A stretch of DNA of 64,000 bases from a virus: positions 1 through 64,000 of the IMG/VR virus record IMGVR_UViG_3300009034_000018; one strand, written 5' to 3'. The notes under the pieces were generated by a model. That model had not been told where the DNA came from and ran no database searches. It was given only the letters and a program-made list of their open reading frames with translations. This document shows, piece after piece, positions 1-25,483 of this stretch; position 1 is the stretch's first letter, and each line of letters opens with the position of its first letter. A program made the translations under genes and the position numbers.

Positions 1-369
1 CTGTGCCGCTGTACCTTGTGGCCCCGTTGGGCCTGTAGGGCCTGTAGCTCCTGCTGCACCATCTGCCCCTGTTGGTCCTGTAGCTCCTGCTGCACCATCT
101 GCCCCTGTTGGTCCTGTAGCTCCTGCTGCTCCTGCAACTCCTGTTGTGCCTGTAGGCCCTGTAGGGCCTGTTACAGCCGTTCCAGCCGCCCCTGCTGGAC
201 CTGTAGGACCAGTTGCTCCTGTTGGTCCTGTTGCCCCTAATCCGACAGCAACATTTACCCACATTCCAGATGCCGCATCATATTCCAATACATCGCCGTC
301 AGCAACTCCGACCACATTTACATCTGACTGGTCTATTAATCTATCTATAACACGGTATGCTTGAACCAT
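1..369 (-). CDS. Collagen-like (G-X-T repeat) fibre/surface protein, 3'-truncated by window edge
   Basis: Manual translation from ATG at 369: [60 protein letters not shown]..., open to position 1. Not in the supplied ORF track. Confidence 0.85.
41..129. repeat. 36-bp tandem repeat (about 2.5 copies) within the collagen-like gene
   Basis: cctgtagctcctgctgcaccatctgcccctgttggt at 41-76 and 77-112, partial copy from 113. Confidence 0.9.
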
Positions 370-5373: not shown

Positions 5374-6690
5374 TTACCAATTTTCCTCAAGCATTCTTCT
5401 TTCTGAATCTTGTTCTGCTCTCCATCCTGCTTCTCCTCTTAATAATTCATTCAACCTTCGAGCACATTTACTATTTGGATCTCTTGGAACCAAAATTATC
5501 TTGTTTCCATCACATGATCTGCAAGAAATATTATATCTTCCACCCATATAACCTTCCCTGAAATCTGGATCTTGTTCGAAATCTTCATATGTCAATCCAT
5601 GTCTATCTATATCTGGATTTACATATTCTCCTCTGCCTTGACAAGACGGACAAACTTCAAATTTTGCTGGACATTGTTCTCCAGTATGTCTAATTACAAG
5701 AACCATATTGTCTTTATCTTGTATCACGCCCGGAGGATAATACGAATAATCACGAATATCTGCTTTCTTTTCTATATTTTTATCTGATTTAGATGCTTTC
5801 CCCCAACCAGTTTTGGCTCTAATCGCGAAATTCAATTCCCTGAGAAGTTCAGTGTCTTTCGGATCAGCTTTTTTGCGTTTTTTTTGTCTTTTTCTCGCTG
5901 CATTTCTTTTCTTTTTTAATTCAGATAATGAATAACCATCCCATTTGCCTGGTTGCTCGATTTTCACATCTTTCTTCCATTTTGCAGTTTTTGTTAAATC
6001 AGAAACGGATTTAGCATTTAGACCAGCAAATGGTTTATAACGATTTCCATGTAAATTCCTTCTTACCATTTTTTCTGTACACACGGGGCATATTCTATTT
6101 CCGATACCAGATGAAAGAAATCTATGATTACATTTTAAGCATACCCGATATTCTTTTTCGTCATCGCTTTGAGATGTTTTTTCTAAACTAAAAATATTTT
6201 CTGATAATACACCGAAACCACTTTCGTCTGAGTCTTCTTCTCTAAATTGATAACCTTCGGATATTGTATCTTCATCACGACCAGATTGTAATGCTCTAAC
6301 ACAGGCACGAGCATCTCCATAATCTAAACCTTTTCTCCTCATAAGCCAATTTTCAAGTTGTATTTCTCCTTTGCTTTCTAATATGCGCCTAGCTACTTTA
6401 ATATCATCAGATGATAATCCATAATCTTCTAATAGATAGTCATATTCACCGCGATATTGAGATATTTTTTCTAAGTCAAAAATAGATATAGAACTTTTCT
6501 TATCTTTTTTCTTTTTTTTCTTCTTCTTGCCTTTATTAGCTTCTCTATTTTGTTCTTTTATATGTTGTATGCATCTTTCATATTTTGCTTCATTTTCTCT
6601 ACCGACTCTATCTGTGCAAACGGCCCAAGGATTATATGGAGTTGTTTCGCTCTTAGGATACTTGCTTTTTGATGTTTTTATGATTTTCAT
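5374..6690 (-). CDS. Multi-module hypothetical (putative virion polyprotein) with zinc-finger and DnaJ-like CxxCxGxG modules
   Basis: Modules separated by SIFDLEKISQ, NIFSLEKTSQ, SVSDLTKTAK, IEKKAD; CLKC..CPVC; CPSCQGRG..CRSCDG. Confidence 0.7.
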   Translation of the reverse strand: MKIIKTSKSKYPKSETTPYNPWAVCTDRVGRENEAKYERCIQHIKEQNREANKGKKKKKKKKDKKSSISIFDLEKISQYRGEYDYLLEDYGLSSDDIKVARRILESKGEIQLENWLMRRKGLDYGDARACVRALQSGRDEDTISEGYQFREEDSDESGFGVLSENIFSLEKTSQSDDEKEYRVCLKCNHRFLSSGIGNRICPVCTEKMVRRNLHGNRYKPFAGLNAKSVSDLTKTAKWKKDVKIEQPGKWDGYSLSELKKKRNAARKRQKKRKKADPKDTELLRELNFAIRAKTGWGKASKSDKNIEKKADIRDYSYYPPGVIQDKDNMVLVIRHTGEQCPAKFEVCPSCQGRGEYVNPDIDRHGLTYEDFEQDPDFREGYMGGRYNISCRSCDGNKIILVPRDPNSKCARRLNELLRGEAGWRAEQDSERRMLEENW

Positions 6691-6762
6691 AATACTCTCT
6701 CCACTAATTTTCTATATAATTATTACAACTATTCTATTAATAATCCTCTCCTTTTTAAAAAT

Positions 6763-7563
6763 TTAATTGTTTGGAACATCATAGTGCGGGATGTTGTTGG
6801 TTCCCACGAAACCGAGATTATTTTCTATATCATACATCTTTCCGCCTTCCAGGCCATAATATTCGGCGTGGCCATCAGCACATAATGCATTAGTCTTGTT
6901 TAAGTGACGAAAGTGTGTTGTTGGCATAACGGCTGGGGGGCCTGTAATCGGTTCCAGATGAGTGCTATTTTGAAACCAATCTTCTCCAAATGGATTCCAA
7001 GCCATTGCTGCATCAACAAATACGAATAAGGAGGCTGGCTGTGGCAAATAAATGGAACGTTTAGGTCTTAAATCCCATTTCCACATATATGAAGCTGGAT
7101 CAAGGCACCATGTATTATATGCAAGTGTAGTCGTATGCTGTTTGACATTTCCCTGTGGTTTATAAGTCCCCCACTTCATCGATGGGCACCAAAATTGCTC
7201 TAGGCTATAATCACAGTATTTTAGAAATGGGCTATGCCTTGTATCAACTGGATCAGTATTAGTTCCCCAAAAATATGTGATTACTCCTGGTTCGGGATAG
7301 TTAGGTTTAGCTCCTGGCCAAAATGATTCTTTATTGTTGGCGTGATACGAACCCATGGATCGACCAAGACCGTTAAGATGAGCCATACAATAAGCCCGCT
7401 TGGCCAATTCCTTAGCTATGTATAGACTTGGTGCAATGATCGCTGCCAATAAAGTGATAATGCATATTACAAGTATGAGTTCTGTGAGAGTGAAACCTGT
7501 TTTACGCCGTCTTTGATTCTGAATATTTTTTGTAATATATGCTTTATCCCAATTTGCAAACAT
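6763..7563 (-). CDS. Prepilin-type N-terminal cleavage/methylation protein with H-X9-DG motif (DUF1559-like, PVC-type)
   Basis: RRKTG^FTLTELILVICIITLLAAIIAPSL, AKRAYCMAHL, FWCPS, FRHLNKTNALCADGHA. Confidence 0.9.
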   Translation of the reverse strand: MFANWDKAYITKNIQNQRRRKTGFTLTELILVICIITLLAAIIAPSLYIAKELAKRAYCMAHLNGLGRSMGSYHANNKESFWPGAKPNYPEPGVITYFWGTNTDPVDTRHSPFLKYCDYSLEQFWCPSMKWGTYKPQGNVKQHTTTLAYNTWCLDPASYMWKWDLRPKRSIYLPQPASLFVFVDAAMAWNPFGEDWFQNSTHLEPITGPPAVMPTTHFRHLNKTNALCADGHAEYYGLEGGKMYDIENNLGFVGTNNIPHYDVPNN

Positions 7564-7579
7564 GATAGTTTTGGTTGTG

Positions 7580-8140
7580 TTATCTAATATATTTTTTTAA
7601 TAGTCCTTTTCTCTGCAAAAATCTAATTAAAGCCGAACCAGTAATCAATTCTATATATTCTTTTTCTGCTCCCCCTGTTGGATATTCCGTATAATAATCT
7701 CCTGGTTCTACAGAATGTAAACCTCTTTCTTCTGCTTGCATTTCCCATCCGACATCATATTCTTCAGGTCTTTGCTCCCAACCACTAGGAGGTTCTGTAG
7801 ATCCTGGACATCCTTTTATTTTGACTAACATTCCGTGATTACGTATATCATTTACAGAAACACCTTCACCCCACGATTTACCAAGCTTTTCTCTAATATG
7901 ATGTAACATAGCATTCACTGCGCTTCCTAAGTTTTCTTTATCAGTAGCAAAAGACAATTCTGCACACACTTCTTCTATATCTAATCCTGCTGCTGCATAT
8001 TCACTGCCATAGGCATCTTGAACAAACTGTCCCACAGAAGGAAATAGTCCTATTTCGCCAATAGATGGAGCATGATCAATAATAGTACCGTGATATAAAC
8101 TCCTGTCTGCTATTTTTCTAATTTTATTATACCAATTCAT
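7580..8140 (-). CDS. ADP-ribosyltransferase/Tpt1-like fold protein with MNWY leader
   Basis: LYHGT...IGEIGLFP...LSFATD motif order typical of H-x-x ART folds. Confidence 0.45.
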   Translation of the reverse strand: MNWYNKIRKIADRSLYHGTIIDHAPSIGEIGLFPSVGQFVQDAYGSEYAAAGLDIEEVCAELSFATDKENLGSAVNAMLHHIREKLGKSWGEGVSVNDIRNHGMLVKIKGCPGSTEPPSGWEQRPEEYDVGWEMQAEERGLHSVEPGDYYTEYPTGGAEKEYIELITGSALIRFLQRKGLLKKYIR

Positions 8141-8497
8141 TTATTCTTCCCAAGTATATTGTGGATATTCTTCCATTTTTCCAAAAACAATTTCTGGAAT
8201 ATCATCCCCCCATTGATCAGCAGTTATATCTAATATCTTTACACCGTCTGGTGTCCAAACATCTAACCATGCATGGCGGTTCCCATTAAAAAACCCAAAC
8301 TGCACAGCGCAAATAATACCCAGATCAGTTAAATTTTTTTGTAACTCATAAGAAGCATCTAAACATTTATCTTGGTTAGAACAATTCGGATATTTAGAAC
8401 GTATGCGTTTTGCTTCTTGTAAAGCAATCTGTTCTACTGGCTGACCGTGATATAAACTCTTGTCTGCTATCTTTTTAATTTTATTATACCAATTCAT
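8141..8497 (-). CDS. Papain/transglutaminase-like fold protein with MNWY leader
   Basis: C-H-D triad pattern: KCLDAS, RHAWL, ILDITADQW. Confidence 0.6.
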   Translation of the reverse strand: MNWYNKIKKIADKSLYHGQPVEQIALQEAKRIRSKYPNCSNQDKCLDASYELQKNLTDLGIICAVQFGFFNGNRHAWLDVWTPDGVKILDITADQWGDDIPEIVFGKMEEYPQYTWEE

Positions 8498-8500
8498 TAT

Positions 8501-9508
8501 TTAAAGCCATGTTTTATATGGTCTTCGTCTAACAATTTCATTAACACGTTCTTCTGGTGTCAATTTTCTCAATTCCATGGGAAGGACATATTCATCACAA
8601 ATCTGACACCAGTGCCAACCAGGACCAACTGCATCACACATCGAATGTTCATAACATAATTCCAATCCACATTCTGGACATTCAAAATAAGGTTTTTCCT
8701 CTTTAGATGCTAAATGGATATTTATTAAAGGAATTTGCATATCTTGTTGTAATACACTATCTAATCTTAATTCTGTATCTGTAGATGCTGGATTGCGTTT
8801 TTTCTTTTTCTTCTTCTTTTTTCTCTTTTTAGCATATTTATATAAATCGAAAATATTTCTTCGTGTATTTGCATACGAATGCATTTCAATAATATCGCCC
8901 GTTTCTATTGCTTGAAATGGAACATCGGTATAATATTTATTGGAACTATAAACATAAATATTAAAATTAGAGTTAATAACGACATCATCATATGCATCAT
9001 ATAACCCATTAGCGATATCTCTTAAATCATTTTCTTTCAAGAACCATGTTTCTATATTGTCTTCTTCTAATCTTTTCCAGCCCCAATGCTTCATGGCAAA
9101 TTCTCTTGCATCGCCCTGCCCTTTTGCTATTTCAAAATATTCTGGTTCTATTCCTAGTTCTTCTAAGTTGTCTCCAATTAATTCATATGCATAATAACTA
9201 GTATTCTTAGACATTTCCCAGATTTCATAAATCTGATCGTCTATGTCTTTTATGTCACCTGGCTCTTCTGTATCTAACTTTTTTTCTTCTAATTCTTGCT
9301 TTTTTTCTTCTAATATTTCTAAAACAGTTTTATTTTTCCATTCTTCCCAATCTTCTTCTCCATTTATAATTTGACTTTGAACAACTTCGATGACATATGC
9401 TTCATGATTATAATCTCCAATATCTCCATCTGCAAACATAGCAGTTCCATCATGAATCCAAAATTCCCCTCTCATTTCTGCATATTTACATAAATTAAAG
9501 ATATTCAT
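8501..9508 (-). CDS. Hypothetical putative virion protein, two modules, C-terminal zinc ribbon
   Basis: MNIFNLCKYAE and internal RNIFDLYKYAK; acidic core; CPEC..CQIC. Confidence 0.7.
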   Translation of the reverse strand: MNIFNLCKYAEMRGEFWIHDGTAMFADGDIGDYNHEAYVIEVVQSQIINGEEDWEEWKNKTVLEILEEKKQELEEKKLDTEEPGDIKDIDDQIYEIWEMSKNTSYYAYELIGDNLEELGIEPEYFEIAKGQGDAREFAMKHWGWKRLEEDNIETWFLKENDLRDIANGLYDAYDDVVINSNFNIYVYSSNKYYTDVPFQAIETGDIIEMHSYANTRRNIFDLYKYAKKRKKKKKKKKRNPASTDTELRLDSVLQQDMQIPLINIHLASKEEKPYFECPECGLELCYEHSMCDAVGPGWHWCQICDEYVLPMELRKLTPEERVNEIVRRRPYKTWL

Positions 9509-9543
9509 ATAAATATAATACTTGAAATGTTGGCAAAACCCCT

Positions 9544-9963
9544 TTATTGCATAACATTCTTTAATTGTGTTATTAAAAGAGCAGCATCTGAAAATAGAGA
9601 TGCGTCATGTAAATAACCAGCAGCTTCTAGTGCAAATGACAATCTCATCAATTTGTCTAAATCATTTTGTGATATGTTATTTAAAACAGATTCCATTTCT
9701 GGCGAAATTCGTCTTTGCCCGACAAAAGGTTCGTGTGCTTTCTTTTTAACTTTTTTTTCCATTTCTATAAGGTGATCATAATATTTAGGATCTTCCGACA
9801 AATGATCCATAGCTATCTCTTCAGCAATTTCTTCATCGTTAGTATGTTCTGATTCAATTTTAACTCCTTTTTGCAATTGATTTTGGTCAAAGTCTTTAGG
9901 ATATTTTTTATCTGCCAGTCCACCTATAAGTCTATTATATTTTTTTGATTTGATTACTTTCAT
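9544..9963 (-). CDS. DUF5661-like phage protein
   Basis: LIGGLAD..P.DFD..QL.KG..IESEHT....IAEEIAMDHLSEDPKYY motif. Confidence 0.7.
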   Translation of the reverse strand: MKVIKSKKYNRLIGGLADKKYPKDFDQNQLQKGVKIESEHTNDEEIAEEIAMDHLSEDPKYYDHLIEMEKKVKKKAHEPFVGQRRISPEMESVLNNISQNDLDKLMRLSFALEAAGYLHDASLFSDAALLITQLKNVMQ

Positions 9964-12335: not shown

Positions 12336-13208
12336 TTAGGATGCAGTTGTTATTTCGATCAGGCTGATTGCATAGTCGTTAAGAACGACGATGCCCACTT
12401 CTTCGTAGATTACCCAGCCGAGACGAAGTTTCTTTGGATCATCAGCAGGCAAAACCGTAATATCCTGACGGATTGGGAACGCGCCCACGGTATCAGGCGA
12501 AGCTACTAACAACACAACATCTGTATCCATACGACTTGAAACGTGTAAATCAGCGGTCCACAAGTGACCATACAGACCGGTTGTTATGATTTCTCTTTGA
12601 GTTGCCTCATCATAGAAATCTTTTCCGAAAATACGGATAGCAGCGAATTGTGTTGCATGCATAACTAGTTTTGTGCAAACCAGATCATGCGACTCAATCA
12701 GCCTGAAGCCAGTGTTCAGAGAGTTAACAGTCAATGCACCAACATTAACAACAACTTGTGTGCCAAGCGTTGTTGCAGCAGCAGTAAGTGCGTTGAAAAT
12801 ATTTGTATCTTCTTCCTTCTGAATCGCCTCTTTTGCCTTGATCTGTGCACGGTCAACTATATAGAATCGACGTGCTTTGATTTCAGACAATCTCACCGTT
12901 GGGTGAGCAGCAATTTCGAAGGTAGGAACAAGCACTTCTTCACCCTCTTGAATTTGATCAGGGACAGCACCACGGCGAGAGATAACGTGAGCAATTGCAG
13001 CCACGTCACGTTCATATCTAGCCAATGCGCCCTGTGGCAGTTCATCAACCATCAGAAGTTTACGACCAACAGCCTGGTATTCCAAGGAACGACGAATAGG
13101 TTCAACCATTGCCTGCGCCAAAGCCACACGCCCTTCATCGGTATTTAATGCAGCTTCAATAACAGCTAGTTTTTCTTGGTCTGTTAGACCGTTTTTCTGA
13201 ATAGCCAT
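12336..13208 (-). CDS. Major capsid protein (HK97 fold)
   Basis: ALAQAMVEPIRRSLEYQAVGRKLLMVDELPQGALARYERD, VPTFEIAAHP, GWVIYEEVG; last gene of the head module, strong SD and a terminator. Confidence 0.88.
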   Translation of the reverse strand: MAIQKNGLTDQEKLAVIEAALNTDEGRVALAQAMVEPIRRSLEYQAVGRKLLMVDELPQGALARYERDVAAIAHVISRRGAVPDQIQEGEEVLVPTFEIAAHPTVRLSEIKARRFYIVDRAQIKAKEAIQKEEDTNIFNALTAAATTLGTQVVVNVGALTVNSLNTGFRLIESHDLVCTKLVMHATQFAAIRIFGKDFYDEATQREIITTGLYGHLWTADLHVSSRMDTDVVLLVASPDTVGAFPIRQDITVLPADDPKKLRLGWVIYEEVGIVVLNDYAISLIEITTAS

Positions 13209-13288: not shown

Positions 13289-13837
13289 TTAGTGTCCGTC
13301 TCTCATAATAAATTGAAGATATGTGCCAAGACTCATATGGCCTAACACAGCAGTGCCAGGAACACCACTCGGAAACGCTCCTGCTGCTCCCAAAGCTATC
13401 CCGACAACACCTGCTGCAGAGGCAACATTTGTCGTATTGCCATTAGCATCAGCATATATTGGCTGACCTGCAGCGAATGTAACACCAGCGTTTAATTGAT
13501 CAGTAGCGAATCGTCCGCCACCATGATAAACGGTGATCTTACCAGAAGCCAGTGTTTCATTAAAATAATCCGTAACACGGTTCTGTGTAGAGCGCTGTCT
13601 AGCATTGTTGCTAACGCCAACGTTGGCAGCATATGGAGTACCAGCAGTTGTATCCGACATTGTATCACCAGCAATACCTATAACTTCATGTACGCCATTT
13701 GCTCTTTCTGCATACACATTGCCGGAAACTGTTTGCAACGATACCCATTCACCTTCTATAATGGCATCAGCGGCTGTCCAGTCAGGATCTACTTCAAACA
13801 TATCTGCACATACATGCAGTATTTCAATAAGAGCCAT
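13289..13837 (-). CDS. Capsid decoration/cement protein
   Basis: Small Gly/Ala-rich beta protein between scaffold and MCP; SGKITVYHGGGRFATDQ, GQPIYADANG. Confidence 0.65.
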   Translation of the reverse strand: MALIEILHVCADMFEVDPDWTAADAIIEGEWVSLQTVSGNVYAERANGVHEVIGIAGDTMSDTTAGTPYAANVGVSNNARQRSTQNRVTDYFNETLASGKITVYHGGGRFATDQLNAGVTFAAGQPIYADANGNTTNVASAAGVVGIALGAAGAFPSGVPGTAVLGHMSLGTYLQFIMRDGH

Positions 13838-13856: not shown

Positions 13857-16800
13857 TTACCTACCAAACTCCCTACGGAGTTGTATATCATTATCCTTTT
13901 GAGCCATTTGATTTTTACGGTCTAAGCTAAACATCGCTGTCAATTTATCGACCAACTCTTGCTGAGGGTCGTTTTGCACAGGCTGATTGCTTGCCTCTGA
14001 TATAATCACGGATTGCTCTACTCCGTCAGGTGAATCTTTGAGTCCTTTATCACTTTCAAATATATTACTTTCAATATCTTTTAATTGTTCAGTTTTATAA
14101 GATTCTAATTCTGCAATTTTATTAGACAACTCATCAACAGTTATCTTGCCAGCTTCAAGCATTCTTCCGGCAAGTCGAGTTGCTTCTTTCTTTTGTTCTT
14201 CTGATCCTGCATGTATTCCGCCAAGAATATTACCCGTCATTTCATCATCTTTTTCTGGTTTTAATTTTTCATTGTCTTTTTCTCCGCTAATTCTATCATC
14301 TTTTGTTGGAATATTAGGGGTATCTTTTTCATCTGGTTTATCACCGATAGATTCTTTTTCATTTCCAACGAATGCTTCGTCAGCAGGAACTTTTTGGTCT
14401 TTAGCTGGTTTTGCGGCAGGAACTTCACCTATAGAAGCTTTTTCATCTCCTATAAAACTATCACCGGAATATGGTTTAATATCTTCTGCATCTTGGTCGA
14501 ATCGTCTTTTTACTTTTGTTTGGGCTTCTAAAATTGCATCTGCTAATATTCCTATTCTTGCTTTTGTAGAAGCTGCTCTTGACGATCCTTGTCCTAATTC
14601 GCCACCAGTTGCAGTATCATCTAATTCTGGTTTGAATTCTGGTTCTTCTTTTTCTCCTCCCATTCTTGCATCTGATGCAGGTGCATTTGCTTTTTCTGCA
14701 GTTGGCGGTTCTTCATGCCCCATTTTGGCTGCATCGCCTTTTGATGGTGCACTTGGTTTGTCTGCACTGAATGGATCTTCATCGCCGATACTATCGCCTT
14801 TACTATATTGGAAAGGAACAACGTCTTGAGCGGGTTGTATTTTAATAGTATCAGCTTCTTTATTAATTAAGCCGGAAAGCTTAGAAAAATCTAGATGCGT
14901 AACTTCACCTGTCTTGCCGACATAACTGGCTTTCATGATTGATGCTTCTTTTTCTGAATATGCCATTGTTTGTGTTTCCTTATCTGTTTCGCTTTCGTCA
15001 CCTTCTTTTTCTACTGGTTCATCTGTTTCTTCTGGATTCATAACTCCAGGATTATCATTTTCTTCACTATTCGCTTCTTTCTTAGATTTTCCTTCTTCTT
15101 CTGCACATTTTCTTTCGCATTCTTCTTTACATTTTTCAACTTCTGTTTTTTCTTTATCTTTTCCATCTTCTTCAACTTCGACATTTACTTCAACTTCTCC
15201 ACCTTCTTCGGCTTTAACTTCGCCGCCCTCTTCGGGCTTAACTTCTCCACCTTCTTCCGCAGACAATGGAGCAGAAACACATTCTTTTGTTTCTTCTTCA
15301 ACATCAACAACTTCATCAACTGGTTCTTCTGGAACAACTTCTTCACCGACTTCTTCTACTTCATCAACTACTGGTTCTTCATCAACTACTGGTTCTTCAT
15401 CAACTACTGGTTCTTCATCAACTGGGACTTCCCCTAATTCTTCTGCTACTTCTTCTTCTTTGCCAAGAGCTTTAACCAAGTTTGCTAAAGCTTCTGCAAC
15501 TTCATCGCCACCGATTCCAACAACTTCGTCTTCTGGTTCCATTGGTTCTTCCACATCTTCTTCCACATCTTCTTCTACAAATTCGTCACCGAATGGATCT
15601 TCTTCTAAATCAGTTACAAGTCCATCGCCCATTTCATCTTCCATAAATGCACTTTCAACTTCTTCTACAAGCTGTTGTGCAAATATGTCGTTGAAAGAAG
15701 CATATTTAGATTTTAAAGATTCACAAACAGTAGTTGCTTCCTTCAAATCTAAGCCCATTCTCACATAGTCTTCAAGACATTCAGTAGATGCTTCTTTATC
15801 TTTCCATACATCTGCAACTTTAACTGCAAGACCATTCGAATAAATACCAGCTTTCTTTAATGATTTGCAAATACATTCAGCAAGTGGACTTCCTTCACAT
15901 GGACCACTTAATGCGATGGCTTCTTCTCCATAGCGACGAGACAATCTTTCCAAACAGCTTTCCATTGGGAAATTATTATCAAGGTTAACAGCAGTTTTAA
16001 TTTGGTCTAATATTCTTTCTTTCTTTTCAGCAGAAGCTGTTTTCATCGGCTTCAGTAAACCAGCTTGTTTCATAGAAAGAATTAACTCTCCTTTTTCTTT
16101 CATGCCCATAGCATCGAAATTTTCTTCATCAACATTCATTTCTTTTAGTGCTGCAACAAATTTCTTATGGGATTCTTTACACTCTGGACACTCCTTATTT
16201 ACTTCTGGAATCCATGTCCACTGTGCATAAACTTTTTTAGGATCTCGTCTCCTAAAGGCATATTCAATTGTATAAACATTGCCTGTATCTAGACACAAGT
16301 AGTTATTATCATCTAGTTTTATTGTATTTGTGGAACCAGTTAAGGGGCTAATTGAGCCAAGCTGGACTTTCGCTTCTTTGATAACATTAAGCATTTCTGG
16401 CTTAATAAGTGTCACTGCAGCAAATTTAACTGGTCCAGATATATTTTCTTGTGCTGCTTCCTTAATTTGACGGTCATTTTTTGTACTAGCTGCAGCAGGC
16501 ATAGGAACCGTGCCAGCAGTACCAGCTTCAGGAACCTCTGGCATTTCAAATCCTTCCCCACCTTCACCTAGTTCTTCTTGACCAGCAGGTTGTCCATCGT
16601 TTATATTGCTTTCGAGCGTACCTGGCCAATTTGGAACTTCAACCAATACCTTATAGTTCCAATCAGCAGTACAGTTATTACAATGTCCATTTCCTTTAAT
16701 AACGTCAACATCTTCGCTACCACAAACTGGGCATGCTCCCCCAGGTGGTTTAGGCTGGAGATCGCCTTCATCTTCGAATTCTCCTGCAAGATCTGATTGT

Positions 16801-19800
16801 TCAAAGCTTTCTACTGGTGGTTGTCCACCTGCTGCTGGAGGTTGAGGCATTGTTGCACCGGCACCAGGCCCTTGTGCTGCTCCTGCTTGTCCTCCCATTT
16901 CTCCGCCAAGAAGTTGTGCTTCTCTTACCATTTTATCTCTATCTGATTTTTTAGAAGCAGATTTTTCGTTTGTTTCATTAGATTTGCCTTCAACATACGG
17001 ACGAGCTTTATTCCAAGCTTCTTTTTCCTCATCAGTCATTAGTTTAGAGTCTTTAAGTGTTGCAACGACTAATTTCTTATCAGTATCCACATCAACATTA
17101 ATTAATGCAGTTTCGATATCTCCGACTTCTTCAGAGATTTTCTTATTTGCAAATTTATATGCTGCTACAGCAATAGCCTGTTTGTCCTCAGATTCTGCAT
17201 TAATTTCATCGATAGATGCCTGTACTTGATACAAACCATCTTCTGGTTTTTCCATAGATTTAAGCGCTTCGTCCAAAGCAGATATTTTATCTAATTCATT
17301 TTTATTCTCTGGTGTAGTTGCCATCTTTTCAGATGCTACTTTTTCTATATTTTTATGCAATTTTTCAGAGGACATGATATAATCTACAGCGCCAATTAGA
17401 TCGTCAGCGCTTAGATCGCTAAGATTATCGCTCATTGCAACGATTAAAGCATCTACTGTATCAGGTGTCTCAACTGGTTTAGATGCCAACTTAGACAAAT
17501 AAGTATATCTGGTTTTTTCGTTTGCTCTGGCTTCTGCCTTGTGAGGCATCGCATTAACTACCATTAAAAATGCAGTCTTATCAAGATTTCTAGTATCTTT
17601 CTTAATGAACGAAGTAGCTTTTTTGATTTCTTGCGGTGTTTTACCATAATAAGCTATGGTGTCAGAAATAGCCTCGGTTGCAGCTTTTATAAGTTTGTCA
17701 GCTTCATATTGATAAGCCCAGCGAGAAAGATCAGTTGTCTGTGCACCTAATTGTTTTTCCGTTATTACTCCGAGAGCAGGGAACTGGTGGTGAGACATGA
17801 AATCAAGAAGTTGCTTTTCTGTTATTCGATTATCCTGATCATTGCTTAATTCAGAACCAATCCATCGACTTACTTCAGACCACTGTTTTTCTGTAATTAC
17901 ATGTGGAAAATCATTCCATCGTACAACATGAGTGCCTTTGATATTATTAAATTGTTTCTCTGTAATAACCTTGCGTGGATCGTCCTGTCTTGGTTGTGGG
18001 CTTTCACTAGTTGTAACATTCACATCTCTTTCTGGATTTTCCATTTGTTTTTCTGTGATAACATTTGGACCGCCATCTTGACGTTCTCCAGTAAATTTAG
18101 CTTCGTCAAGTTGCTTTTCTGTGATTACACCAACACTGTGTTCTTGGTCATTAGCAACTTTTTCATTATCATTTTGATCTTTTCCTGTCTTTTCATTAGT
18201 CATAGCAATTGACTCCTTATTAATTGTTGTATCACTATTTTTTGTATTTATAAGATTTTCCTGTAGTATTTCCAATCTTTTAATCATATTACTGGCAATT
18301 CGCAGAAATTCCTTCTTTTTTATATTGTTTATATCCATATTCCCAGAGAACTTAGGCTTAGTTATGCTTCCAATATCTCCTATTTGTTCAGTCTCAACAC
18401 CTGGAGAAATTTGTTGTGGCTGCTGTCTTCCCATTGGTGGAATTTGTTGTGGTACACCACCTGCTGTCGTTTCTTCTATTTTTTCAAGTTCTTCTGAGGT
18501 TTTTGGCAGTTCTACATCTTCAACTCCTGTTGTATCAGGAGAAGGTAATTGTCCATATCCCATTTCTGTTAATTCATCTGCAACTGATTGGACACTAGCC
18601 AAAACGTCTACAAGATCGCTTACATATGTCATAGAAATTTGTTTCTTTTGACTCATCATGCTTTTAGCGACAGTCTCTATTTTATTCATTACTTCGCTTA
18701 AATATTCTAATTCTTTTGACCCAGCGATCTTCTCAATACTACATGAGCCATCACACGAAGCAGCTTTTATCAAATTGCCTATTTTATCATGTATTTCTGC
18801 CATTTTTCTATTCATGCCAGATGGATTTAATATATCATGAACGATACAGTTCTGACATGCTTGATTAACAACAAAAGAATCTTCTATAAATTTAATTCCA
18901 TAATTCCACTCAAATATTCGAGTTTCACTGTGTTTAATCGTTTTTGATTCATCTGCTTTTTTACCACAAAGCGGGCAATCATCTTTTGGTTTACTTGGAC
19001 TATCATGATATTTGCATTCTATAGTTCCACTAATCTTTTTGTTTTTTCGTTCTTTAATACAAGAGCAATATTCATCGGCAACATGAGCTTTATTGTGACA
19101 ATAAGAACAGATGGAATATTCTACGGAACAATTATGAGTCGCTATTCCATTTAATATATAACTATGATCACTTTCTTTATTATTTATTTTGCCAACTTGT
19201 ACATAATATGTTGGTTCATTATTTTTTATAACTTTTATGTTCTTTATTCTATGTGCCATATATGTTCTATACGGGAATGAAATAAATATGGACTTTCTTA
19301 TTTTTGGGCCATTAAATACTTTATAACTATATTCTTTAATTTTTGGTGATATAGAATTATTTATATATAATTGATATTCAGTATATTCAAAATCTTCTTT
19401 CATAACAGTAGAGCTTTTAGCTATTCTGTCATGTCTGCTTAAAACGGCTGGGACTCCTAATTGCAAACATATTTTTCTTGTGTCGGAAAGTAAATTTTTG
19501 GAAGCAGATGATATTTGGACAGCACCTTTACCAGAACTGTCATTGCTCGGATTTATAATACATCCATCACCATCTACATAAGCAGCCAAAAATATTTTTT
19601 TCTGTTGTTTTGGAAGACTTAATATTTTATTGTTTATTCTTTTACTATGGCTTCCACATCCAACGTATTTCTCACATATTTTAGCAAGATTAGAATTCCA
19701 TGAAATTAAATAAAGACCATTTCTTTCTGGTTTTCTGTCTATTCTTAACCTGTTTTTTGGATATTTTTTTTGTAAAATTGTTTTAAGCTTATTAAAATTA

Positions 19801-20744
19801 GATTTCTTGTTTTTTTCTTCATCTAACCCGAAGCAAAAGCATAATGATTTACTTCCGTTTATATATCCTTCTGCTGTATAAACGCCAAGGATATAAGCAA
19901 TATCATCGTCTATGTCATTTTCAGCGTTTTCTGATTGACAAATATATTCTAATACAAAATCCCCCGGTTTCACCGAATTAGCAGGCACAAAAACTGGATC
20001 AATTTTTTCTATATCTTTTACGGATTTTCTATATTTTTTTCCATTTTTACAATAATGATATAAATCTTCATGTTTTAATATCAAAACTGGATGTTCATAA
20101 CTTAAAGCTAATCCATCCATATTACTCATCCATTGTATCAAATAAAGCTCATCATGTTCTTGTGTTTTACATATAATTTCTATTTTTTCTGTTTTTCCTG
20201 TATGGGTTATTACCTTATCATTTTTTTGTAATTCATCTACTCTTTTTAATGAATGGTCCGACATAGATACTAAATCATGTCCACGAGAAGCTCCCATCGA
20301 GGTTCCCAAAATATATTTTTCTTCAATTCCTCTTGCCAATGGTGGATATGCCACCCTATCTATCATAGAGATGATCCAAATGCCCCCTGCCTCTTTATCG
20401 TACCACGAATGAACACATTTTCCCTTAGCTTTTTCAACATCATCATTTTGATGATTAGTAAACACAGGAACATTAACAAATGTTTCTGCTGCTTTTGATA
20501 GTTCTTCTCCTGAAAACGCATCTCCGTTATCATTAACTTCATCTTCTTCAATGGCAAAGATTTTAATGAACAGGTGATCTGGATGTTCTTTAATTTCTTT
20601 ATCTAAGTCAAATCCATTTAAATCAGTAGTGTTCTTGTTAACAGATGCGAATTTAAGTCTGTTTAAATTATATTCATACCAATCTGGTTTATTCAGAGGT
20701 TGTATGTTTTTTATAATAAAATTCTCTCTTATTTTTTTTATCAT
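13857..20744 (-). CDS. Prohead protease / giant scaffold polyprotein with intein
   Basis: N-terminal NDNGDAF..FTNHQNDD..GTSMG protease-like region; intein; CxxC modules; ITEKQ repeats; long acidic low-complexity C-terminus; located upstream of decoration protein and MCP. Confidence 0.8.
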   Translation of the reverse strand: MIKKIRENFIIKNIQPLNKPDWYEYNLNRLKFASVNKNTTDLNGFDLDKEIKEHPDHLFIKIFAIEEDEVNDNGDAFSGEELSKAAETFVNVPVFTNHQNDDVEKAKGKCVHSWYDKEAGGIWIISMIDRVAYPPLARGIEEKYILGTSMGASRGHDLVSMSDHSLKRVDELQKNDKVITHTGKTEKIEIICKTQEHDELYLIQWMSNMDGLALSYEHPVLILKHEDLYHYCKNGKKYRKSVKDIEKIDPVFVPANSVKPGDFVLEYICQSENAENDIDDDIAYILGVYTAEGYINGSKSLCFCFGLDEEKNKKSNFNKLKTILQKKYPKNRLRIDRKPERNGLYLISWNSNLAKICEKYVGCGSHSKRINNKILSLPKQQKKIFLAAYVDGDGCIINPSNDSSGKGAVQISSASKNLLSDTRKICLQLGVPAVLSRHDRIAKSSTVMKEDFEYTEYQLYINNSISPKIKEYSYKVFNGPKIRKSIFISFPYRTYMAHRIKNIKVIKNNEPTYYVQVGKINNKESDHSYILNGIATHNCSVEYSICSYCHNKAHVADEYCSCIKERKNKKISGTIECKYHDSPSKPKDDCPLCGKKADESKTIKHSETRIFEWNYGIKFIEDSFVVNQACQNCIVHDILNPSGMNRKMAEIHDKIGNLIKAASCDGSCSIEKIAGSKELEYLSEVMNKIETVAKSMMSQKKQISMTYVSDLVDVLASVQSVADELTEMGYGQLPSPDTTGVEDVELPKTSEELEKIEETTAGGVPQQIPPMGRQQPQQISPGVETEQIGDIGSITKPKFSGNMDINNIKKKEFLRIASNMIKRLEILQENLINTKNSDTTINKESIAMTNEKTGKDQNDNEKVANDQEHSVGVITEKQLDEAKFTGERQDGGPNVITEKQMENPERDVNVTTSESPQPRQDDPRKVITEKQFNNIKGTHVVRWNDFPHVITEKQWSEVSRWIGSELSNDQDNRITEKQLLDFMSHHQFPALGVITEKQLGAQTTDLSRWAYQYEADKLIKAATEAISDTIAYYGKTPQEIKKATSFIKKDTRNLDKTAFLMVVNAMPHKAEARANEKTRYTYLSKLASKPVETPDTVDALIVAMSDNLSDLSADDLIGAVDYIMSSEKLHKNIEKVASEKMATTPENKNELDKISALDEALKSMEKPEDGLYQVQASIDEINAESEDKQAIAVAAYKFANKKISEEVGDIETALINVDVDTDKKLVVATLKDSKLMTDEEKEAWNKARPYVEGKSNETNEKSASKKSDRDKMVREAQLLGGEMGGQAGAAQGPGAGATMPQPPAAGGQPPVESFEQSDLAGEFEDEGDLQPKPPGGACPVCGSEDVDVIKGNGHCNNCTADWNYKVLVEVPNWPGTLESNINDGQPAGQEELGEGGEGFEMPEVPEAGTAGTVPMPAAASTKNDRQIKEAAQENISGPVKFAAVTLIKPEMLNVIKEAKVQLGSISPLTGSTNTIKLDDNNYLCLDTGNVYTIEYAFRRRDPKKVYAQWTWIPEVNKECPECKESHKKFVAALKEMNVDEENFDAMGMKEKGELILSMKQAGLLKPMKTASAEKKERILDQIKTAVNLDNNFPMESCLERLSRRYGEEAIALSGPCEGSPLAECICKSLKKAGIYSNGLAVKVADVWKDKEASTECLEDYVRMGLDLKEATTVCESLKSKYASFNDIFAQQLVEEVESAFMEDEMGDGLVTDLEEDPFGDEFVEEDVEEDVEEPMEPEDEVVGIGGDEVAEALANLVKALGKEEEVAEELGEVPVDEEPVVDEEPVVDEEPVVDEVEEVGEEVVPEEPVDEVVDVEEETKECVSAPLSAEEGGEVKPEEGGEVKAEEGGEVEVNVEVEEDGKDKEKTEVEKCKEECERKCAEEEGKSKKEANSEENDNPGVMNPEETDEPVEKEGDESETDKETQTMAYSEKEASIMKASYVGKTGEVTHLDFSKLSGLINKEADTIKIQPAQDVVPFQYSKGDSIGDEDPFSADKPSAPSKGDAAKMGHEEPPTAEKANAPASDARMGGEKEEPEFKPELDDTATGGELGQGSSRAASTKARIGILADAILEAQTKVKRRFDQDAEDIKPYSGDSFIGDEKASIGEVPAAKPAKDQKVPADEAFVGNEKESIGDKPDEKDTPNIPTKDDRISGEKDNEKLKPEKDDEMTGNILGGIHAGSEEQKKEATRLAGRMLEAGKITVDELSNKIAELESYKTEQLKDIESNIFESDKGLKDSPDGVEQSVIISEASNQPVQNDPQQELVDKLTAMFSLDRKNQMAQKDNDIQLRREFGR
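15361..15423. repeat. 18-bp tandem repeat (3.5 copies) encoding EEPVVD
   Basis: tcatcaactactggttct x3 plus a partial copy. Confidence 0.9.
19131..20291 (-). mobile_element. Intein (387 aa) with LAGLIDADG homing endonuclease, Ala at position 1
   Basis: GTSMG|ASRGHDLVSMSD...VITHTG...SYEHP...LGVYTAEG...FLAAYVDGDG...GIATHN|CSVEYS. Confidence 0.9.
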
Positions 20745-21257: not shown

Positions 21258-21689
21258 TTAGCCTTTGACGTGTCTTGGGATATAGACATCAACTAGATCT
21301 AACTTCTGATAATTATGTTGATTTTGTGGATATGCAATTCCCCATCTTTTGGCTGCGTGGCTTAGAGCAGACGCGATATTAGAAAAATAGTCACCAGCGG
21401 GAGCATACACTTTTTTCCTTGCATAGCGAGGTGGCAATTTTTTTATACCGGAAAAAAAGGCTTTTTGTCCATATCTTTGTACTGCTGGACCTACAACAAT
21501 AAAATAATCACTGTCTGTTGTATAATCATGCCCTTCCCATCTGTGATATGAACCTGGTCCTATTTCTCTTTCAAATCTTTTTTTTAATGGTAGAGACTTT
21601 TTGCCATAGGCTTCTTTCCAGCGGATTCCTCTATCTCTTATTCTTCTTGGACCGCCAGATTCTTTTATATGTGCAAATTTCTTTTTCAT
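21258..21689 (-). CDS. Basic hypothetical protein (head module)
   Basis: 143-aa ORF abutting the portal stop. Confidence 0.75.
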   Translation of the reverse strand: MKKKFAHIKESGGPRRIRDRGIRWKEAYGKKSLPLKKRFEREIGPGSYHRWEGHDYTTDSDYFIVVGPAVQRYGQKAFFSGIKKLPPRYARKKVYAPAGDYFSNIASALSHAAKRWGIAYPQNQHNYQKLDLVDVYIPRHVKG

Positions 21690-21690
21690 T

Positions 21691-23997
21691 TTATGTACCT
21701 ATATAATACATATGCCCTAAATTGTCATCCATATTAGTTTTTTGAAATTTTATATCTTTACCTTCTATATTTTCAAATGTTAATATACTATTTGCTTGTT
21801 TTATCATTTCGTCATTTTCACCAGCATTTTTATATCTTGCAGTTATATCTTTAGTCGCTTCAACAACATTGCTATATATAATTTTCATTATTTCAGACAT
21901 CTGATTATTAATTGCATTTTCTTTAAATCTTAAGACTCTCCAACCAATATTTGCTAATTTTGCATCTCTTTGTTGATCTCTTATTTTAGATTCTACTTGT
22001 TCATGCCAAGCTTCGCCGTCACACTCAATCGCGACACCAATTGCTGGATAAGCAAAGTCCATCATAAATGGCATTGGCTGATTAGGTAACTGGACAGAAT
22101 ATTGACCAAATAATTTATGAGGAATTTTATCAGCCATTGTTTGTAGGGCATTTAGCATTTTTTGTTCTAATGATGTTAATCTTATTATTTTCGTTTGAGG
22201 TCGCATTTGTTCTCTTTGTTTCTCTGCTGACATTCCTTTACCGCGTTTATGGACAAATGCAGGCGGTTCAGAGACTGGCTGTGGTGCAGCAGCCATTGGG
22301 ATTGCTGGGGCTCCACCAACGCCTCCTGGAGCCATTTCTCCACCTATCCCACCTCCTGGTACCATTCCACCTCCTGGTATACCACCCATTGGTTCTCCTG
22401 GCATACCTCCACCTATAGGTGGCATCTCTATGCCACCTATGCCGCCTATGCCACCCATGCCGCCCATGGCACCCATGCCGCCCATGGCTCCTGGTTGTCC
22501 TAATATTTGCCCTGTTGCAGATGCCAAAGCAGATTCTTCTCTCAATCTTTGTGTTTCTTGATCATAATCCAAATCAAATTCTTCTAATAATGTTTGTGAA
22601 GAGATTAATCCTTTATCATGAAGTTGCATATAACTTTGTCTTTGTGGGGTCTTATCTCTAAGATTTAGATCATTCCACTTTAAATTAGGGTATAGCCATA
22701 TTTTTTCTTGTGCTTCTTCACTCTCTTCCTTATCAACAAAATCATGCATCATGGCTATTGGAAGGAATATATGATTTTCCACCCATGTTGCCAATTCATT
22801 TCTCCAACTTTCTAAACGTCTTATCATAACTTCTATGCCAACTTGGGCCGAACTATATCCGCTCATCTCACCATTTAATATAGCTTGATTGAGCATGAAT
22901 CCGTCTAATATTTCTTTACCTATTTGTTCTAGTTCAGAAGTTATATTGTGTATTTTTCCGGTGGCCCCTATCCAATCATACTCAAATGCATGGTGTGTTA
23001 CAAGCGTTAAATTAGGATCATTCGCTATAGCTGCTATTTGAGATGCAACATCTTGTATATCAGTTTGATTAGCTGGACGTTTTTCACTACCCAACTTAAT
23101 AACACGAATAGGAAGAATCAAACGTTCTGCAACGATCCAATTAGCTGTCATCAATTTAGTTTTATAAGCCAAATAAGTAAATAATCTTCTTATCATAGAT
23201 GTTCCATATGCTCCATATGGGCTACCTTGATATTTAATATGACTTATACACCTATTGGATAAAACGATAGGATGACCAGAAGCAATTGCATTAACAAGTT
23301 GCGGAGGTAATTTAGAAAATATTTCCTGTGGGCGTCTTGTAGATATAATTTCTTTTAATTCATCATCTGGTTCTAATGTAAATACAGGGTCATCTGCAAT
23401 CGGAGAACTATGTACTGTTATCCAATCTGGATTTAATATCTTTATTCCTTTAATAGTACCATCAGGATGTCTACATTGTTCTCCATCTGGTCTATATCCA
23501 GATCCACCACAAATTTTACATTCATACTCTACGAATGGAAACACATCGCCTAATAGATATCTTTCAAAACTTATTAACTTTAGCCAGTATTCTAATTTTA
23601 TTCTTTTAACTAATCGTTCATAGAACTTTAATATTTTTCTATCTTTGCATTCTAAAACAAATCCATTAAGTGGAAATTCAGAATAAAAATCTATGCCAGC
23701 AGATACTTTTGGTTCATTTTCATAATAGAATCTTGACCATTGATATATTTCTCTTCGTTTGCTTGCGATCTGCCAGTTTTGTGGAGTATGCAGTGGTGAA
23801 AAGAACATGGGTTGTGTATACATTACATTCGCCAAACCACCACTAAGTGTTTGTGCGCTTTTTGTCAATGGAGTGAATGAAGTTTGACTATTAGTATATC
23901 TTCCATCCGTTTGTTGAGGATTAGTCCCGACTTTTGATACGATAGAACGTGCCTTTTCTGCCGTATTTTTATCCGGTACAGAAAATTTTATTGTCAT
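21691..23997 (-). CDS. Portal protein with zinc-ribbon insert, Gly/Met/Pro-rich linker and C-terminal DUF559/Vsr-like nuclease domain
   Basis: RFYYENEPKVSAGIDFYSEFP, ILNPDWI, YGTSMIRR, PIRVIKLG, LKWNDLNLRD; tail MDFAYP..VAIECDGEAWH..DQQRDAKL..GWRVLRF. Confidence 0.8.
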   Translation of the reverse strand: MTIKFSVPDKNTAEKARSIVSKVGTNPQQTDGRYTNSQTSFTPLTKSAQTLSGGLANVMYTQPMFFSPLHTPQNWQIASKRREIYQWSRFYYENEPKVSAGIDFYSEFPLNGFVLECKDRKILKFYERLVKRIKLEYWLKLISFERYLLGDVFPFVEYECKICGGSGYRPDGEQCRHPDGTIKGIKILNPDWITVHSSPIADDPVFTLEPDDELKEIISTRRPQEIFSKLPPQLVNAIASGHPIVLSNRCISHIKYQGSPYGAYGTSMIRRLFTYLAYKTKLMTANWIVAERLILPIRVIKLGSEKRPANQTDIQDVASQIAAIANDPNLTLVTHHAFEYDWIGATGKIHNITSELEQIGKEILDGFMLNQAILNGEMSGYSSAQVGIEVMIRRLESWRNELATWVENHIFLPIAMMHDFVDKEESEEAQEKIWLYPNLKWNDLNLRDKTPQRQSYMQLHDKGLISSQTLLEEFDLDYDQETQRLREESALASATGQILGQPGAMGGMGAMGGMGGIGGIGGIEMPPIGGGMPGEPMGGIPGGGMVPGGGIGGEMAPGGVGGAPAIPMAAAPQPVSEPPAFVHKRGKGMSAEKQREQMRPQTKIIRLTSLEQKMLNALQTMADKIPHKLFGQYSVQLPNQPMPFMMDFAYPAIGVAIECDGEAWHEQVESKIRDQQRDAKLANIGWRVLRFKENAINNQMSEIMKIIYSNVVEATKDITARYKNAGENDEMIKQANSILTFENIEGKDIKFQKTNMDDNLGHMYYIGT

Positions 23998-24544: not shown

Positions 24545-25483
24545 TTATCTTTTTTTTTTAGTAGATGCCATTTTCCAATTAAATGGTTTGGTTTTATCGG
24601 CACTTTCATATGGAGAGTCATCGCTCGATCTTTGAGCAACCATTCTGGCCTCTAAAGATCTTTGTTCTGGAACATATGGGCGTCTACGTTGACCTGGTTT
24701 CAATTGATAATTATTCTTTTCAGGAGTCCACTTATCGACTTCGAAACGTTTTTGTACATATCCACCCACCCAATTACCATCTTTGTCACGGTATGGGCGA
24801 CTGTACTTGTCCATAATCGACCCGCGCCATATAGCTTCCCAATTAATATTCCAAAGATCATCAACGACAAGACCAAAACCCTTATTACGTTCTATAATGC
24901 TCCATTCTGACGCTGGTTGTCTTGTAAAGGGATCTACACTTTGCATTTGGCCGGGACCATATAATATTACATTTTCCATAGATTTATGTTGAGCGGTTTT
25001 TATCAAATTAAATGCATTGACCACTTTTGATTTTTTAGCATCTCGGCTGGCTAATGATTTAATTTCGCTATTAGATTCTTTTATAATATTATCTATATCA
25101 TGTGCATGCGTTAAAGGAAGATCCATAGTGCGCTCCTGTACATTTGTTTTATCCATTCTAATTATATCTGGTAATTTTGGCCAAATAGAAATAGCTATTT
25201 CTAACTTTTCCTCTTCTGTCAAAAGGCTTTCAAAATAATCCTCCATAGCAGAGGTAACAAATTCTTGATCATCATCTTTTACTAATTCCATCAATTTATT
25301 TTCAACTTCTCTCCTATCTTTCCCTTCTAAGATTTCTTGATCGATCCAATTTTTTAAGTCAGAAGCAGATGCAAACTGTAACTCTGATCTTGGGTCCATT
25401 TCTTCTACGACAAGTCCTTCTGCTGGTAATTCAGTTGGATTTTCTGGCAACAACGGAGCCTCATATAAATTTGTATATGGCAT
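24545..25483 (-). CDS. Hypothetical head-module protein
   Basis: AFNLIKTAQ motif; Trp-rich C-terminal domain; ends KKKR* on a poly-A tract. Confidence 0.8.
   Translation of the reverse strand: MPYTNLYEAPLLPENPTELPAEGLVVEEMDPRSELQFASASDLKNWIDQEILEGKDRREVENKLMELVKDDDQEFVTSAMEDYFESLLTEEEKLEIAISIWPKLPDIIRMDKTNVQERTMDLPLTHAHDIDNIIKESNSEIKSLASRDAKKSKVVNAFNLIKTAQHKSMENVILYGPGQMQSVDPFTRQPASEWSIIERNKGFGLVVDDLWNINWEAIWRGSIMDKYSRPYRDKDGNWVGGYVQKRFEVDKWTPEKNNYQLKPGQRRRPYVPEQRSLEARMVAQRSSDDSPYESADKTKPFNWKMASTKKKR

Follow-up and report, generated by a model that had tools for sequence, protein, structure and literature searches.

A short leader peptide ending in the motif phi-x-K-x-[A/S] opens unrelated proteins in a 64,000-nucleotide stretch of viral DNA, referred to below as the window (IMG/VR record IMGVR_UViG_3300009034_000018; bases 1-64000 of a source contig of 74,058 bp). 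The motif is portable between proteins, keeps a fixed register at domain starts and occupies conserved positions in the capsid, portal and protease proteins. These sequence patterns, read by analogy with the capsid-targeting sequence (CTS) of phage T4, make it somewhat probable that the motif is a cleavage site of the prohead protease and doubles as a capsid-loading propeptide. That it is a site of proteolytic processing is considered likely from its sequence distribution; a further role in bringing cargo into the capsid for delivery is given an even chance at best. The major capsid protein of the window shares 54% identity with gp27 of Bacillus phage G and 70-88% with the capsids of 113 IMG/VR contigs, including complete genomes of 488-548 kb. 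Hence, the window was taken to be a fragment of a phage-G-like megaphage.

Three leaders were distinguished, MNWYK.., MK[VIT][IL].[TS].K and F[NDS]L.K.[AS], and all are variants of phi-x-K-x-[A/S]. Their alignment gives the common core M-N-W-Y-K-K-A, M-K-I-I-K-T-A and F-N-L-x-K-x-A, in which K-x occupies the two positions ahead of the small residue in every type; the residue that follows is often Q or E, and S and G also occur. All open reading frames (ORFs) and N-termini listed in the first-pass annotation were found as given there. The 74-kb contig has 81 ORFs, and enrichment was assessed on these with 500 composition-preserving shuffles. F[NDS]L.K.[AS] occurs seven times, where 0.15 is expected and none of the 500 shuffles reached seven; ^MK[VIT][IL].[TS].K was observed five times (0.006 expected) and ^MNW[YK].K three times (0 expected). 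The strict N-terminal form phi.K.[AS] is weakly enriched (5 of 81 against 1.6 expected). Internally, phi.K.[AS] is enriched in three head-module proteins only, namely ORF 5374-6690 (6 against 1.6 expected, p=0.0025), ORF 27723-28325 (5 against 1.1) and the giant protease-scaffold protein at 13857-20744 (16 against 8.5). The recognisable replication and metabolic enzymes of the window, i.e. ribonucleotide reductase, terminase, PncA/B and glycosyltransferases, carry no leader. One dUTPase that matches the loose pattern was dismissed as a false positive.

Since the three patterns had been defined post hoc from the same data, the real test was their recurrence in independent genomes. All three were found again in 80 related IMG/VR loci, where MNWYKK opens five genes in a row in one locus (L076) and MKIIKTAKY four in another (L007). 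Together with the window, these loci yielded 70 ORFs tagged with a leader, which, with their first 15 residues trimmed off, fell into 48 BLAST clusters; hence, the leader is common to unrelated proteins. In a complete relative of 548 kb (G001), MNWY is the commonest N-terminal 4-mer (12 of 759 ORFs) and forms tandem arrays at 5-9, 59-62.5 and 114-122 kb. A 20-nucleotide pattern coding for MNWYKKA was present on 24 IMG/VR contigs, 16 of which have a phage-G-like capsid gene while most of the others are small fragments, and this pattern supports lineage specificity of the leader. G001 also holds, at 88790-93786 (L086), eight near-consecutive genes with a different, longer N-terminus in common, MKIRTGFVSNSSSSSF, with two small ORFs interspersed; these represent either a second leader or a paralog family.

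The leaders are exchanged between orthologs. The DUF5661 protein opens with MKVIKSKK in the window and with MNWYKQA in G001, and homologs of a second cargo domain, here called GEWWI, open variously with MNWY, MKIYKIA, MKILKIA or no leader. It was concluded that the leader types are interchangeable and that the leader is dispensable for the domain, so that the transferable tag postulated in the first-pass annotation is borne out.

Judging by codon use, the signal is at the level of the peptide and not of the DNA. Synonymous codons at N2, Y4 and K5 are used in the leaders much as in gene bodies (AAT 61% against 75%, TAT 84% against 82%, AAA 72% against 71%), and tagged genes bear no relation to one another in the DNA ahead of their ATG, which indicates selection on the peptide. 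The same free synonymous variation and unrelated upstream DNA rule out a signal in the DNA such as a translational operator or a recombination box. ORFs 7580-8140 and 8141-8497 are nearly identical over their first 54 nucleotides, a cassette reaching into the SLYHG motif of the former, and it follows that recombination moves leaders between genes. The cassette bears on the alternative that the shared N-termini have no function, being remnants of recombination or duplication at 5' ends or Lys-rich starts that favour translation in AT-rich DNA. Recombination does spread leaders, and the genomes have a G+C content of 31-34% and K-rich N-termini. This alternative is nevertheless disfavoured and regarded as very improbable, since the leaders, free to vary at synonymous sites, persist across capsids of 70-88% identity and hundreds of 50%-identity clusters, AT bias leaves the Trp at position 3 unexplained, the specific leaders vanish when residues 2-12 are shuffled, and start-codon effects cannot yield internal copies at domain junctions. 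Slippery poly-A behind the poly-Lys tracts described below was also ruled out, as AAA and AAG codons are mixed and neither tract has an A-run of at least nine.

Several tagged genes (7580-8140, 8141-8497, 28337-28888) have no Shine-Dalgarno sequence, and each of them starts at the preceding gene's stop codon or 1-3 bases past it (TAAATG). This arrangement in the arrays suggests translational coupling. On a brief look, a promoter-like AGG-N18-GWWWWWW was seen upstream of the tagged genes 5374, 8501, 9544 and 52678 and not upstream of the capsid gene.

The first-pass annotation had also placed the motif at module boundaries, and two ORFs of the window carry it in this position.

5374-6690, minus strand: beads-on-a-string ORF of 438 residues with an N-terminal leader, four internal junction motifs and five modules
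6670-6690, minus strand: leader MKIIKTS of ORF 5374-6690
6460-6483, minus strand: junction IFDLEKIS of the same ORF (residues 70-77), downstream of a poly-Lys tract
6172-6195, minus strand: junction IFSLEKTS of the same ORF (residues 166-173)
5983-6003, minus strand: junction SDLTKTA of the same ORF (residues 230-236)
5761-5778, minus strand: junction NIEKKA of the same ORF (residues 305-310), about 20 residues ahead of module 5
8501-9508, minus strand: two-module ORF of 335 residues, the GEWWI domain followed by a C-terminal zinc-ribbon module
9479-9508, minus strand: leader MNIFNLCKYA of ORF 8501-9508
8831-9478, minus strand: GEWWI domain, about residues 11-215 of ORF 8501-9508
8831-8854, minus strand: junction IFDLYKYA with poly-Lys of ORF 8501-9508

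The boundary position is supported by modules that stand alone elsewhere and by the limits of the GEWWI domain. In ORF 5374-6690, phrog_13335 matches residues 173-207, a zinc-ribbon module that starts at the end of IFSLEKTS; module 1 (residues 1-47) is a separate tagged ORF in two related loci (L046, L037), and module 5 (about residues 330-435) in three (L038, L027, L010). For ORF 8501-9508, HMMER recovered 714 GEWWI relatives among 50%-identity representatives, and the homology spans only residues 10-215 or so, beginning just past MNIFNLCKYA and stopping just short of IFDLYKYA. In its AlphaFold2 (AF2) model, the predicted local distance difference test (pLDDT) score is above 95 for residues 11-210, 64 for the leader (residues 1-10) and at most 79 beyond. 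ORF 7580-8140 has a pLDDT of 85, and its residues 1-10 fall below 50, at 40. Hence, the leader appears to lie outside the fold (40 and 64 for residues 1-10 against 85-98 for the domains).

The GEWWI family also reveals the register of the motif. Its consensus start is MNWYK.xK.A[QE], to which MNIFNLCKYAE corresponds in the window. Among the 128 domains with at least five upstream residues, [KR]-x-[AS] ends 3-4 residues before the first conserved Gly in 82, and no other offset of [KR]-x-[AS] has more than 8 cases; the residue next to the motif in this register is Q in 47 and E in 13. The 82 include 19 of the 43 internal copies, which occur in proteins of about 400-870 residues with NWYKKAQ, NWYHRLKLAQ or SWYRKIKTAS directly ahead of the domain. 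Leaderless homologs begin 1-6 residues ahead of the same Gly, a point relevant to whether a putative cut would lie directly past the small residue. GEWWI is a large unannotated family found alone and within proteins of up to 4203 residues. It gave no fold match in Pfam, PHROG or the PDB and no usable hit in the Atlas; Foldseek returned E values of at least 0.4, and a wide search with VIA-align found only a helical hairpin (Z of at most 7).

The proteins of the head module carry the motif as follows.

12336-13208, minus strand: major capsid protein of 290 residues (phrog_2522, E=3e-62)
13188-13208, minus strand: N-terminal seven residues of the capsid protein, MAIQKNG
13857-20744, minus strand: prohead protease-scaffold polyprotein of 2295 residues with an intein
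20643-20666, minus strand: motif LNRLKFAS ahead of the protease domain
18756-18776, minus strand: motif NLIKAAS after the protease domain
18720-18740, minus strand: motif SIEKIAG after the protease domain
21258-21689, minus strand: conserved head-module protein of 143 residues, leader MKKKFAHIKES at 21657-21689
21691-23997, minus strand: portal with a DUF559 C-terminus (phrog_16240, E=9e-45), PLTKSAQ at 23851-23871
24545-25483, minus strand: head-module protein of 312 residues, internal AFNLIKTAQ at 24989-25015
28337-28888, minus strand: ORF with leader MKVIRTKKIA, part of the region 27723-28888
27723-28325, minus strand: ORF with IKTAQ at 28188-28211, part of the same region

The capsids of the clade open with M-[AS]-phi-x-K-x-[GSA] followed by a conserved LTD..EK, and the phage G capsid, which has no N-terminal extension, begins at the position right after the extension of the clade. 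The protease domain, tested on an intein-free homolog (L070), matches phrog_2774 and phrog_18299 ('head maturation protease'); L070 itself is 33% identical to phage G gp19. The N-terminal motifs are conserved across 65 homologs of the protease-scaffold protein, which start with MAFEKIA or MFEKRA and have a second site (..IKTAS or ..KFAS) immediately ahead of the protease domain. Within 75 residues past this domain, 56 of the 58 homologs compared have phi.K.[AS] sites, for the most part at two positions that recur, and LLK[IV]AS follows the domain in both L070 and phage G gp19. The first-pass annotation was thus right that the motif occurs in head proteins, where it takes conserved positions in the capsid, in the portal and on both sides of the prohead-protease domain. 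LAGLIDADG inteins split the prohead protease (19131-20291, beside a GTSMG motif) and the large terminase (35533-38601); the proteases of several relatives (L070, L053) are intein-free.

In these proteins and in other head proteins, the motif marks the junction of a variable and a conserved part. The roughly 50 full-length homologs of the 143-residue protein have leaders of about 5-45 residues (e.g. MIKIA, MKRIA, MKTFNLLKFA and longer forms with two copies of the motif), nearly all of which end in K-x-[AS] before the core RKRIKDRGI. Portal homologs have a variable N-terminus of about 45 residues and then P[LI]TK[SAN]AQ in 13 of 14; the C-terminus of the portal is a DUF559/Vsr-like endonuclease domain (21691-22520; Pfam E=1.5e-9). 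Homologs of ORF 24545-25483 have FNL.K.AQHK in five of nine cases and FNLTKQASH in two more, with variable sequence upstream. ORFs 28337-28888 and 27723-28325 correspond to one protein of 631 residues in G001, and in both genomes K[IT]AQ stands ahead of a conserved YVG.QGYW.RNRRCW. The WYL label given earlier to ORF 28337-28888 received no confirmation from Pfam. With T4 as the model, such a motif at variable/conserved junctions of head proteins and on small variable proteins is the signature expected of a prohead-protease site.

It can be argued instead that the leader is never cut and acts as a binding or sorting label, such as a peptide that, like those of encapsulin cargo, docks inside the HK97-fold shell, a degron or an address for a membrane or compartment, with K-x-[AS] lying in the binding surface. 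The capsid is indeed encapsulin-sized at 290 residues and has no delta domain, the leaders are predicted to be short amphipathic helices, and in some tagged proteins a membrane segment follows directly. A cleavage site fits better than a docking helix because internal copies between polyprotein domains keep a fixed register, the leader varies from about 5 to 45 residues while its end is kept, and the motif lies on both sides of the protease domain. ClpP, moreover, is absent from three of four complete genomes. An uncut label was judged unlikely.

Cleavage by a protease unrelated to the capsid was given a slightly lower, small probability. The model here is the host enzyme Prp, through which ribosomal protein L27 loses its N-terminal extension (L-N-L-Q-F-F-A) and, in Staphylococcus phage 80alpha, the capsid and scaffold proteins lose their leaders; the tagged proteins would then be trimmed or activated in the cytoplasm and not packaged. 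The likeness consists in very short (7-11 residues) N-terminal leaders on head proteins and in a resemblance of [FY]-N-L-x-K-x-A to the L27 sequence at -6, -5, -4 and 0 ([FL]-N-L....A), and tagged genes do occur outside head modules. However, K-x replaces the Phe-Phe of the L27 site, and the motif is found on dozens of non-structural proteins, on either side of the protease domain that the phage itself encodes and again in the scaffold. The host of phage G is a Prp-bearing Firmicute, yet the phage G leader is RL.KK.[AS] and not L27-like. Prp (PF04327) was absent from all five clade records searched (G000-G004, three of them complete), in a search in which three control genomes scored. As Prp is missing from five of five records and ClpP from three of four genomes, no alternative phage protease is universal, which favours the scaffold-fused prohead protease.

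The tagged cargo proteins of the window, apart from the two modular ORFs above, are listed below.

7580-8140, minus strand: cargo of 186 residues with an ADP-ribosyltransferase (ART)-like fold, leader MNWYNKIRKIA at 8108-8140
8141-8497, minus strand: orphan cargo of 118 residues, leader MNWYNKIKKIA at 8465-8497
9544-9963, minus strand: DUF5661 cargo of 139 residues (Pfam PF18905, E=8e-12), leader MKVIKSKK at 9940-9963
32818-33567, minus strand: 2H phosphoesterase cargo (2H-SAK) of 249 residues (Pfam PF22547, E=2.6e-13), leader MKVLKSKKA at 33541-33567
34261-34776, minus strand: tagged ORF, leader MKTIQTKKA
34757-35452, minus strand: tagged ORF, leader MSKFNLKKHS; its G001 ortholog starts with MEKFNLSKKAS
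52678-53388, plus strand: lysozyme of 236 residues (Pfam Phage_lysozyme, E=9.5e-8), leader MNWYKKS at 52678-52698, followed by a transmembrane segment

Among the 14 homologs of ORF 7580-8140, 12 begin with MNWY, one starts four residues upstream and one has the MK-type start MKIPTLKEV; indels fall within the leader, before an invariant LYHGT. VIA-align superposed its AF2 model on Tpt1/KptA (Z 8.4; root-mean-square deviation 3.3 Å over 89 residues) and then on ART toxins, and the ART-like label assigned earlier is supported by this comparison; Foldseek alone was weak for the ART fold, and the pairwise match to phage G gp53 (E=0.014) is only suggestive. No homologs of ORF 8141-8497 were found, and neither it nor ORF 8501-9508 gave close relatives in IMG/VR. 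The papain-like label of ORF 8141-8497 survives as a lead only, towards a transglutaminase core: its residues 16-118 have template modelling (TM) scores of 0.66-0.71 to Transglut_core clusters in the Atlas. The lysozyme, 2H phosphoesterase and DUF5661 labels were each confirmed by Pfam. The layout of the lysozyme is matched in G001 by a protein with MNWYKKAQ, a transmembrane segment and an SLT domain. In relatives, MNWY also tags an ART-PolyVal protein (in G001), an AAA_33 kinase, an SLT domain, an Acb1-like 2H enzyme, a CCA-adding enzyme with an HD domain and multi-helix-turn-helix (HTH) proteins. Interspersed with the tagged genes is one for a protein of 266 residues at 6763-7563 with the prepilin-type N-terminal methylation motif GFTLTELILV; no close bacterial relative of it was found, and it gave no clue to the host.

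The closest known parallel is T4, in which the propeptides of IPI-III (10-19 residues) and Alt (7 residues) direct these proteins into the core and are cut off by gp21 (PMC9026906). In both systems, a short N-terminal peptide (7-19 residues in T4) is common to unrelated proteins (PMC9026906) and ends in a motif also found in the capsid, scaffold and protease proteins, where the T4 protease cuts it. The tagged genes are in both cases variable, often in tandem and include an ADP-ribosyltransferase, and the leader-coding DNA is transferable between genes. The differences are as follows. The motif here is the basic phi-x-K-x-[A/S] in place of [L/I]-x-E, and cutting would be done by a gp19-type protease as in phage G, which forms one polypeptide with a giant scaffold and in which the searches run detected no similarity to gp21. 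At least three interchangeable leader types are in use here, which also occur internally between polyprotein modules, and the evidence on the present system is from sequence.

In the giant phages phiKZ and SPN3US, the cleavage motif ends in Glu, [S/A/G]-x-E. Their gp175/gp245 system is similar to the present one in that giant phages use one prohead protease and a short motif for many head and ejected proteins (PMC10052503, PMC5694885). It belongs to another lineage, the propeptides are longer and there is no conserved portable leader.

On the side of the cargo, a parallel is offered by the polyvalent proteins that phages and conjugative elements encode and for which transfer along with the DNA has been predicted (Iyer et al. 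2017, PMC5512222). ART-PolyVal, 2H-SAK, lysozyme and PcfJ neighbour domains are shared with them (PMC5512222); 2H-SAK is present in ORF 32818-33567 and ART-PolyVal in the tagged G001 ORF. Multi-module fusions are seen here in ORFs 5374-6690 and 8501-9508, most cargo being single-domain; polyvalent proteins combine 2-15 disparate domains per polypeptide, whereas here mostly separate small proteins each have a leader of their own. Polyvalent proteins have built-in peptidases, and release is here proposed to occur through the head protease at the shared motif.

Phage G, the cultured relative, uses a leader variant of its own. Of the 60 genes annotated in the 40 kb that surround the head genes of phage G, 11 open with a related leader, with forms such as MKRLIKKAS, SRLKKTA, MKRLISKTAA and MKKRLLKKISA. 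Four of 66 genes in a replication region are tagged, including those for a NUDIX hydrolase, a ParB-like nuclease and a protein that continues with FFHGTS. Over the 90 kb examined, about 15 genes carry the variant MKRL.KK[AS]; these leaders keep the K-x-[AS] core and differ in the residues upstream of it. The leader strings returned nothing relevant from the searchable literature, which likewise gave no paper linking capsid targeting with megaphages.

In the mechanism proposed, the prohead protease of the lineage, a scaffold-fused homolog of phage G gp19, would recognise and cut phi-x-K-x-[A/S], and the longer forms M-N-W-Y-K-x(0-4)-K-x-[AS], M-K-I-I-K-T-[AS] and [FY]-[ND]-L-x-K-x-[AS] would serve as removable leaders. 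A leader at the N-terminus or between polyprotein modules would draw the attached protein into the prohead during assembly and would be cut off afterwards, like the propeptides of 7-19 residues of T4 Alt and IPI-III, and the cargo would leave the capsid together with the DNA. In this scheme it is inferred that the motif is cut, that this protease does so, and that cargo is loaded into the capsid and ejected from it. The cargo kit would comprise ART-like proteins, 2H phosphoesterases (one of them Acb1-like), DUF5661, a transglutaminase-like protein, lysozyme and SLT domains behind a membrane segment, a P-loop kinase, a CCA-adding enzyme, HTH proteins and the GEWWI domain. Delivery by the capsid is supported by the match of these cargo types to domains delivered by virions, as predicted for ART-PolyVal and 2H-SAK (PMC5512222) and known for T4 Alt (PMC9026906). 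The full proposal of an address code in phage-G-like megaphages, in which NWYK..K-x-[AS], KIIKT[AS] or FNL.K.[AS] would direct both capsid loading and release by the head protease, is put forward tentatively.

Several observations weigh against this proposal. The minimal definition K-x-[AS] used in the first-pass annotation is too loose to be significant alone: K.[AS] occurs 280 times in the contig, where 254±15 are expected, a count reached by 26 of the 500 shuffles and hence no meaningful enrichment. The claim that the motif exceeds shuffled controls therefore stands for the three specific leaders and fails for the bare form. The degenerate N-terminal phi.K.[AS] shows no proteome-wide enrichment in G001 either (22 against 20.9), and as the core motif has an information content of only about 7 bits, single internal sites are indistinguishable from chance. 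Because the loose patterns show little or no enrichment, it is the specific leaders and positional conservation that carry the signal, and not counts of K-x-A. Some type-C leaders, e.g. MKVIKSKK, have no small residue where one is expected. Tagged genes are not restricted to the head module either, as in G001 and phage G they also lie far from the head genes (50-290 kb, replication region). Some cargo is of 700-800 residues or has a membrane segment (lysozyme, SLT), and the latter proteins could be ordinary endolysins with a signal anchor. Sequence searches of Pfam and the PDB with the protease gave no match, so that its catalytic class is unassignable from them, and the accessible literature on phage G reports no such motif.

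If the proposal is correct, it yields the cleavage specificity of the phage-G-type prohead protease and a rule by which the virion-loaded or injected proteome of uncultured megaphages can be predicted from their genomes. The capsid-targeting principle of T4 would then also hold in an unrelated lineage whose protease is different and whose motif has the opposite charge. Each particle would deliver a large, rapidly shuffled enzyme kit (ART, Acb1-like 2H, CCA-adding enzyme, kinase, nuclease, HTH, GEWWI), among which the Acb1-like 2H enzyme, ART and tRNA repair are flagged as candidate pre-packaged counter-defence functions; the widespread GEWWI domain is flagged besides. The leader could also be used as a packaging tag for protein delivery by large-capsid phages. 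With Bacillus phage G as a cultured relative that has its own leader variant, the proposal is testable.

CheckV gave a completeness of 16% for the contig; the window has a G+C content of about 31%, and its minus strand holds nearly all genes. Two further genes belong to the head module.

13289-13837, minus strand: cement-like protein
35533-38601, minus strand: large terminase with an intein

On the minus strand, the contig start (window 1-200) reads as part of a collagen-like Gly-x-y repeat, at which the assembly was probably broken. Four minus-strand tRNA genes lie within 55805-59413 (Tyr-GTA, Gln-CTG, Ser-CGA, Thr-CGT). The head operon holds receiver domains of the cREC type (cyclic-phosphate processing), and a pncB-pncA pair lies on the opposite strand (29779-30881, 49973-52205). 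Nicotinate phosphoribosyltransferase and an isochorismatase-like gene (L142) are encoded by phage G too.

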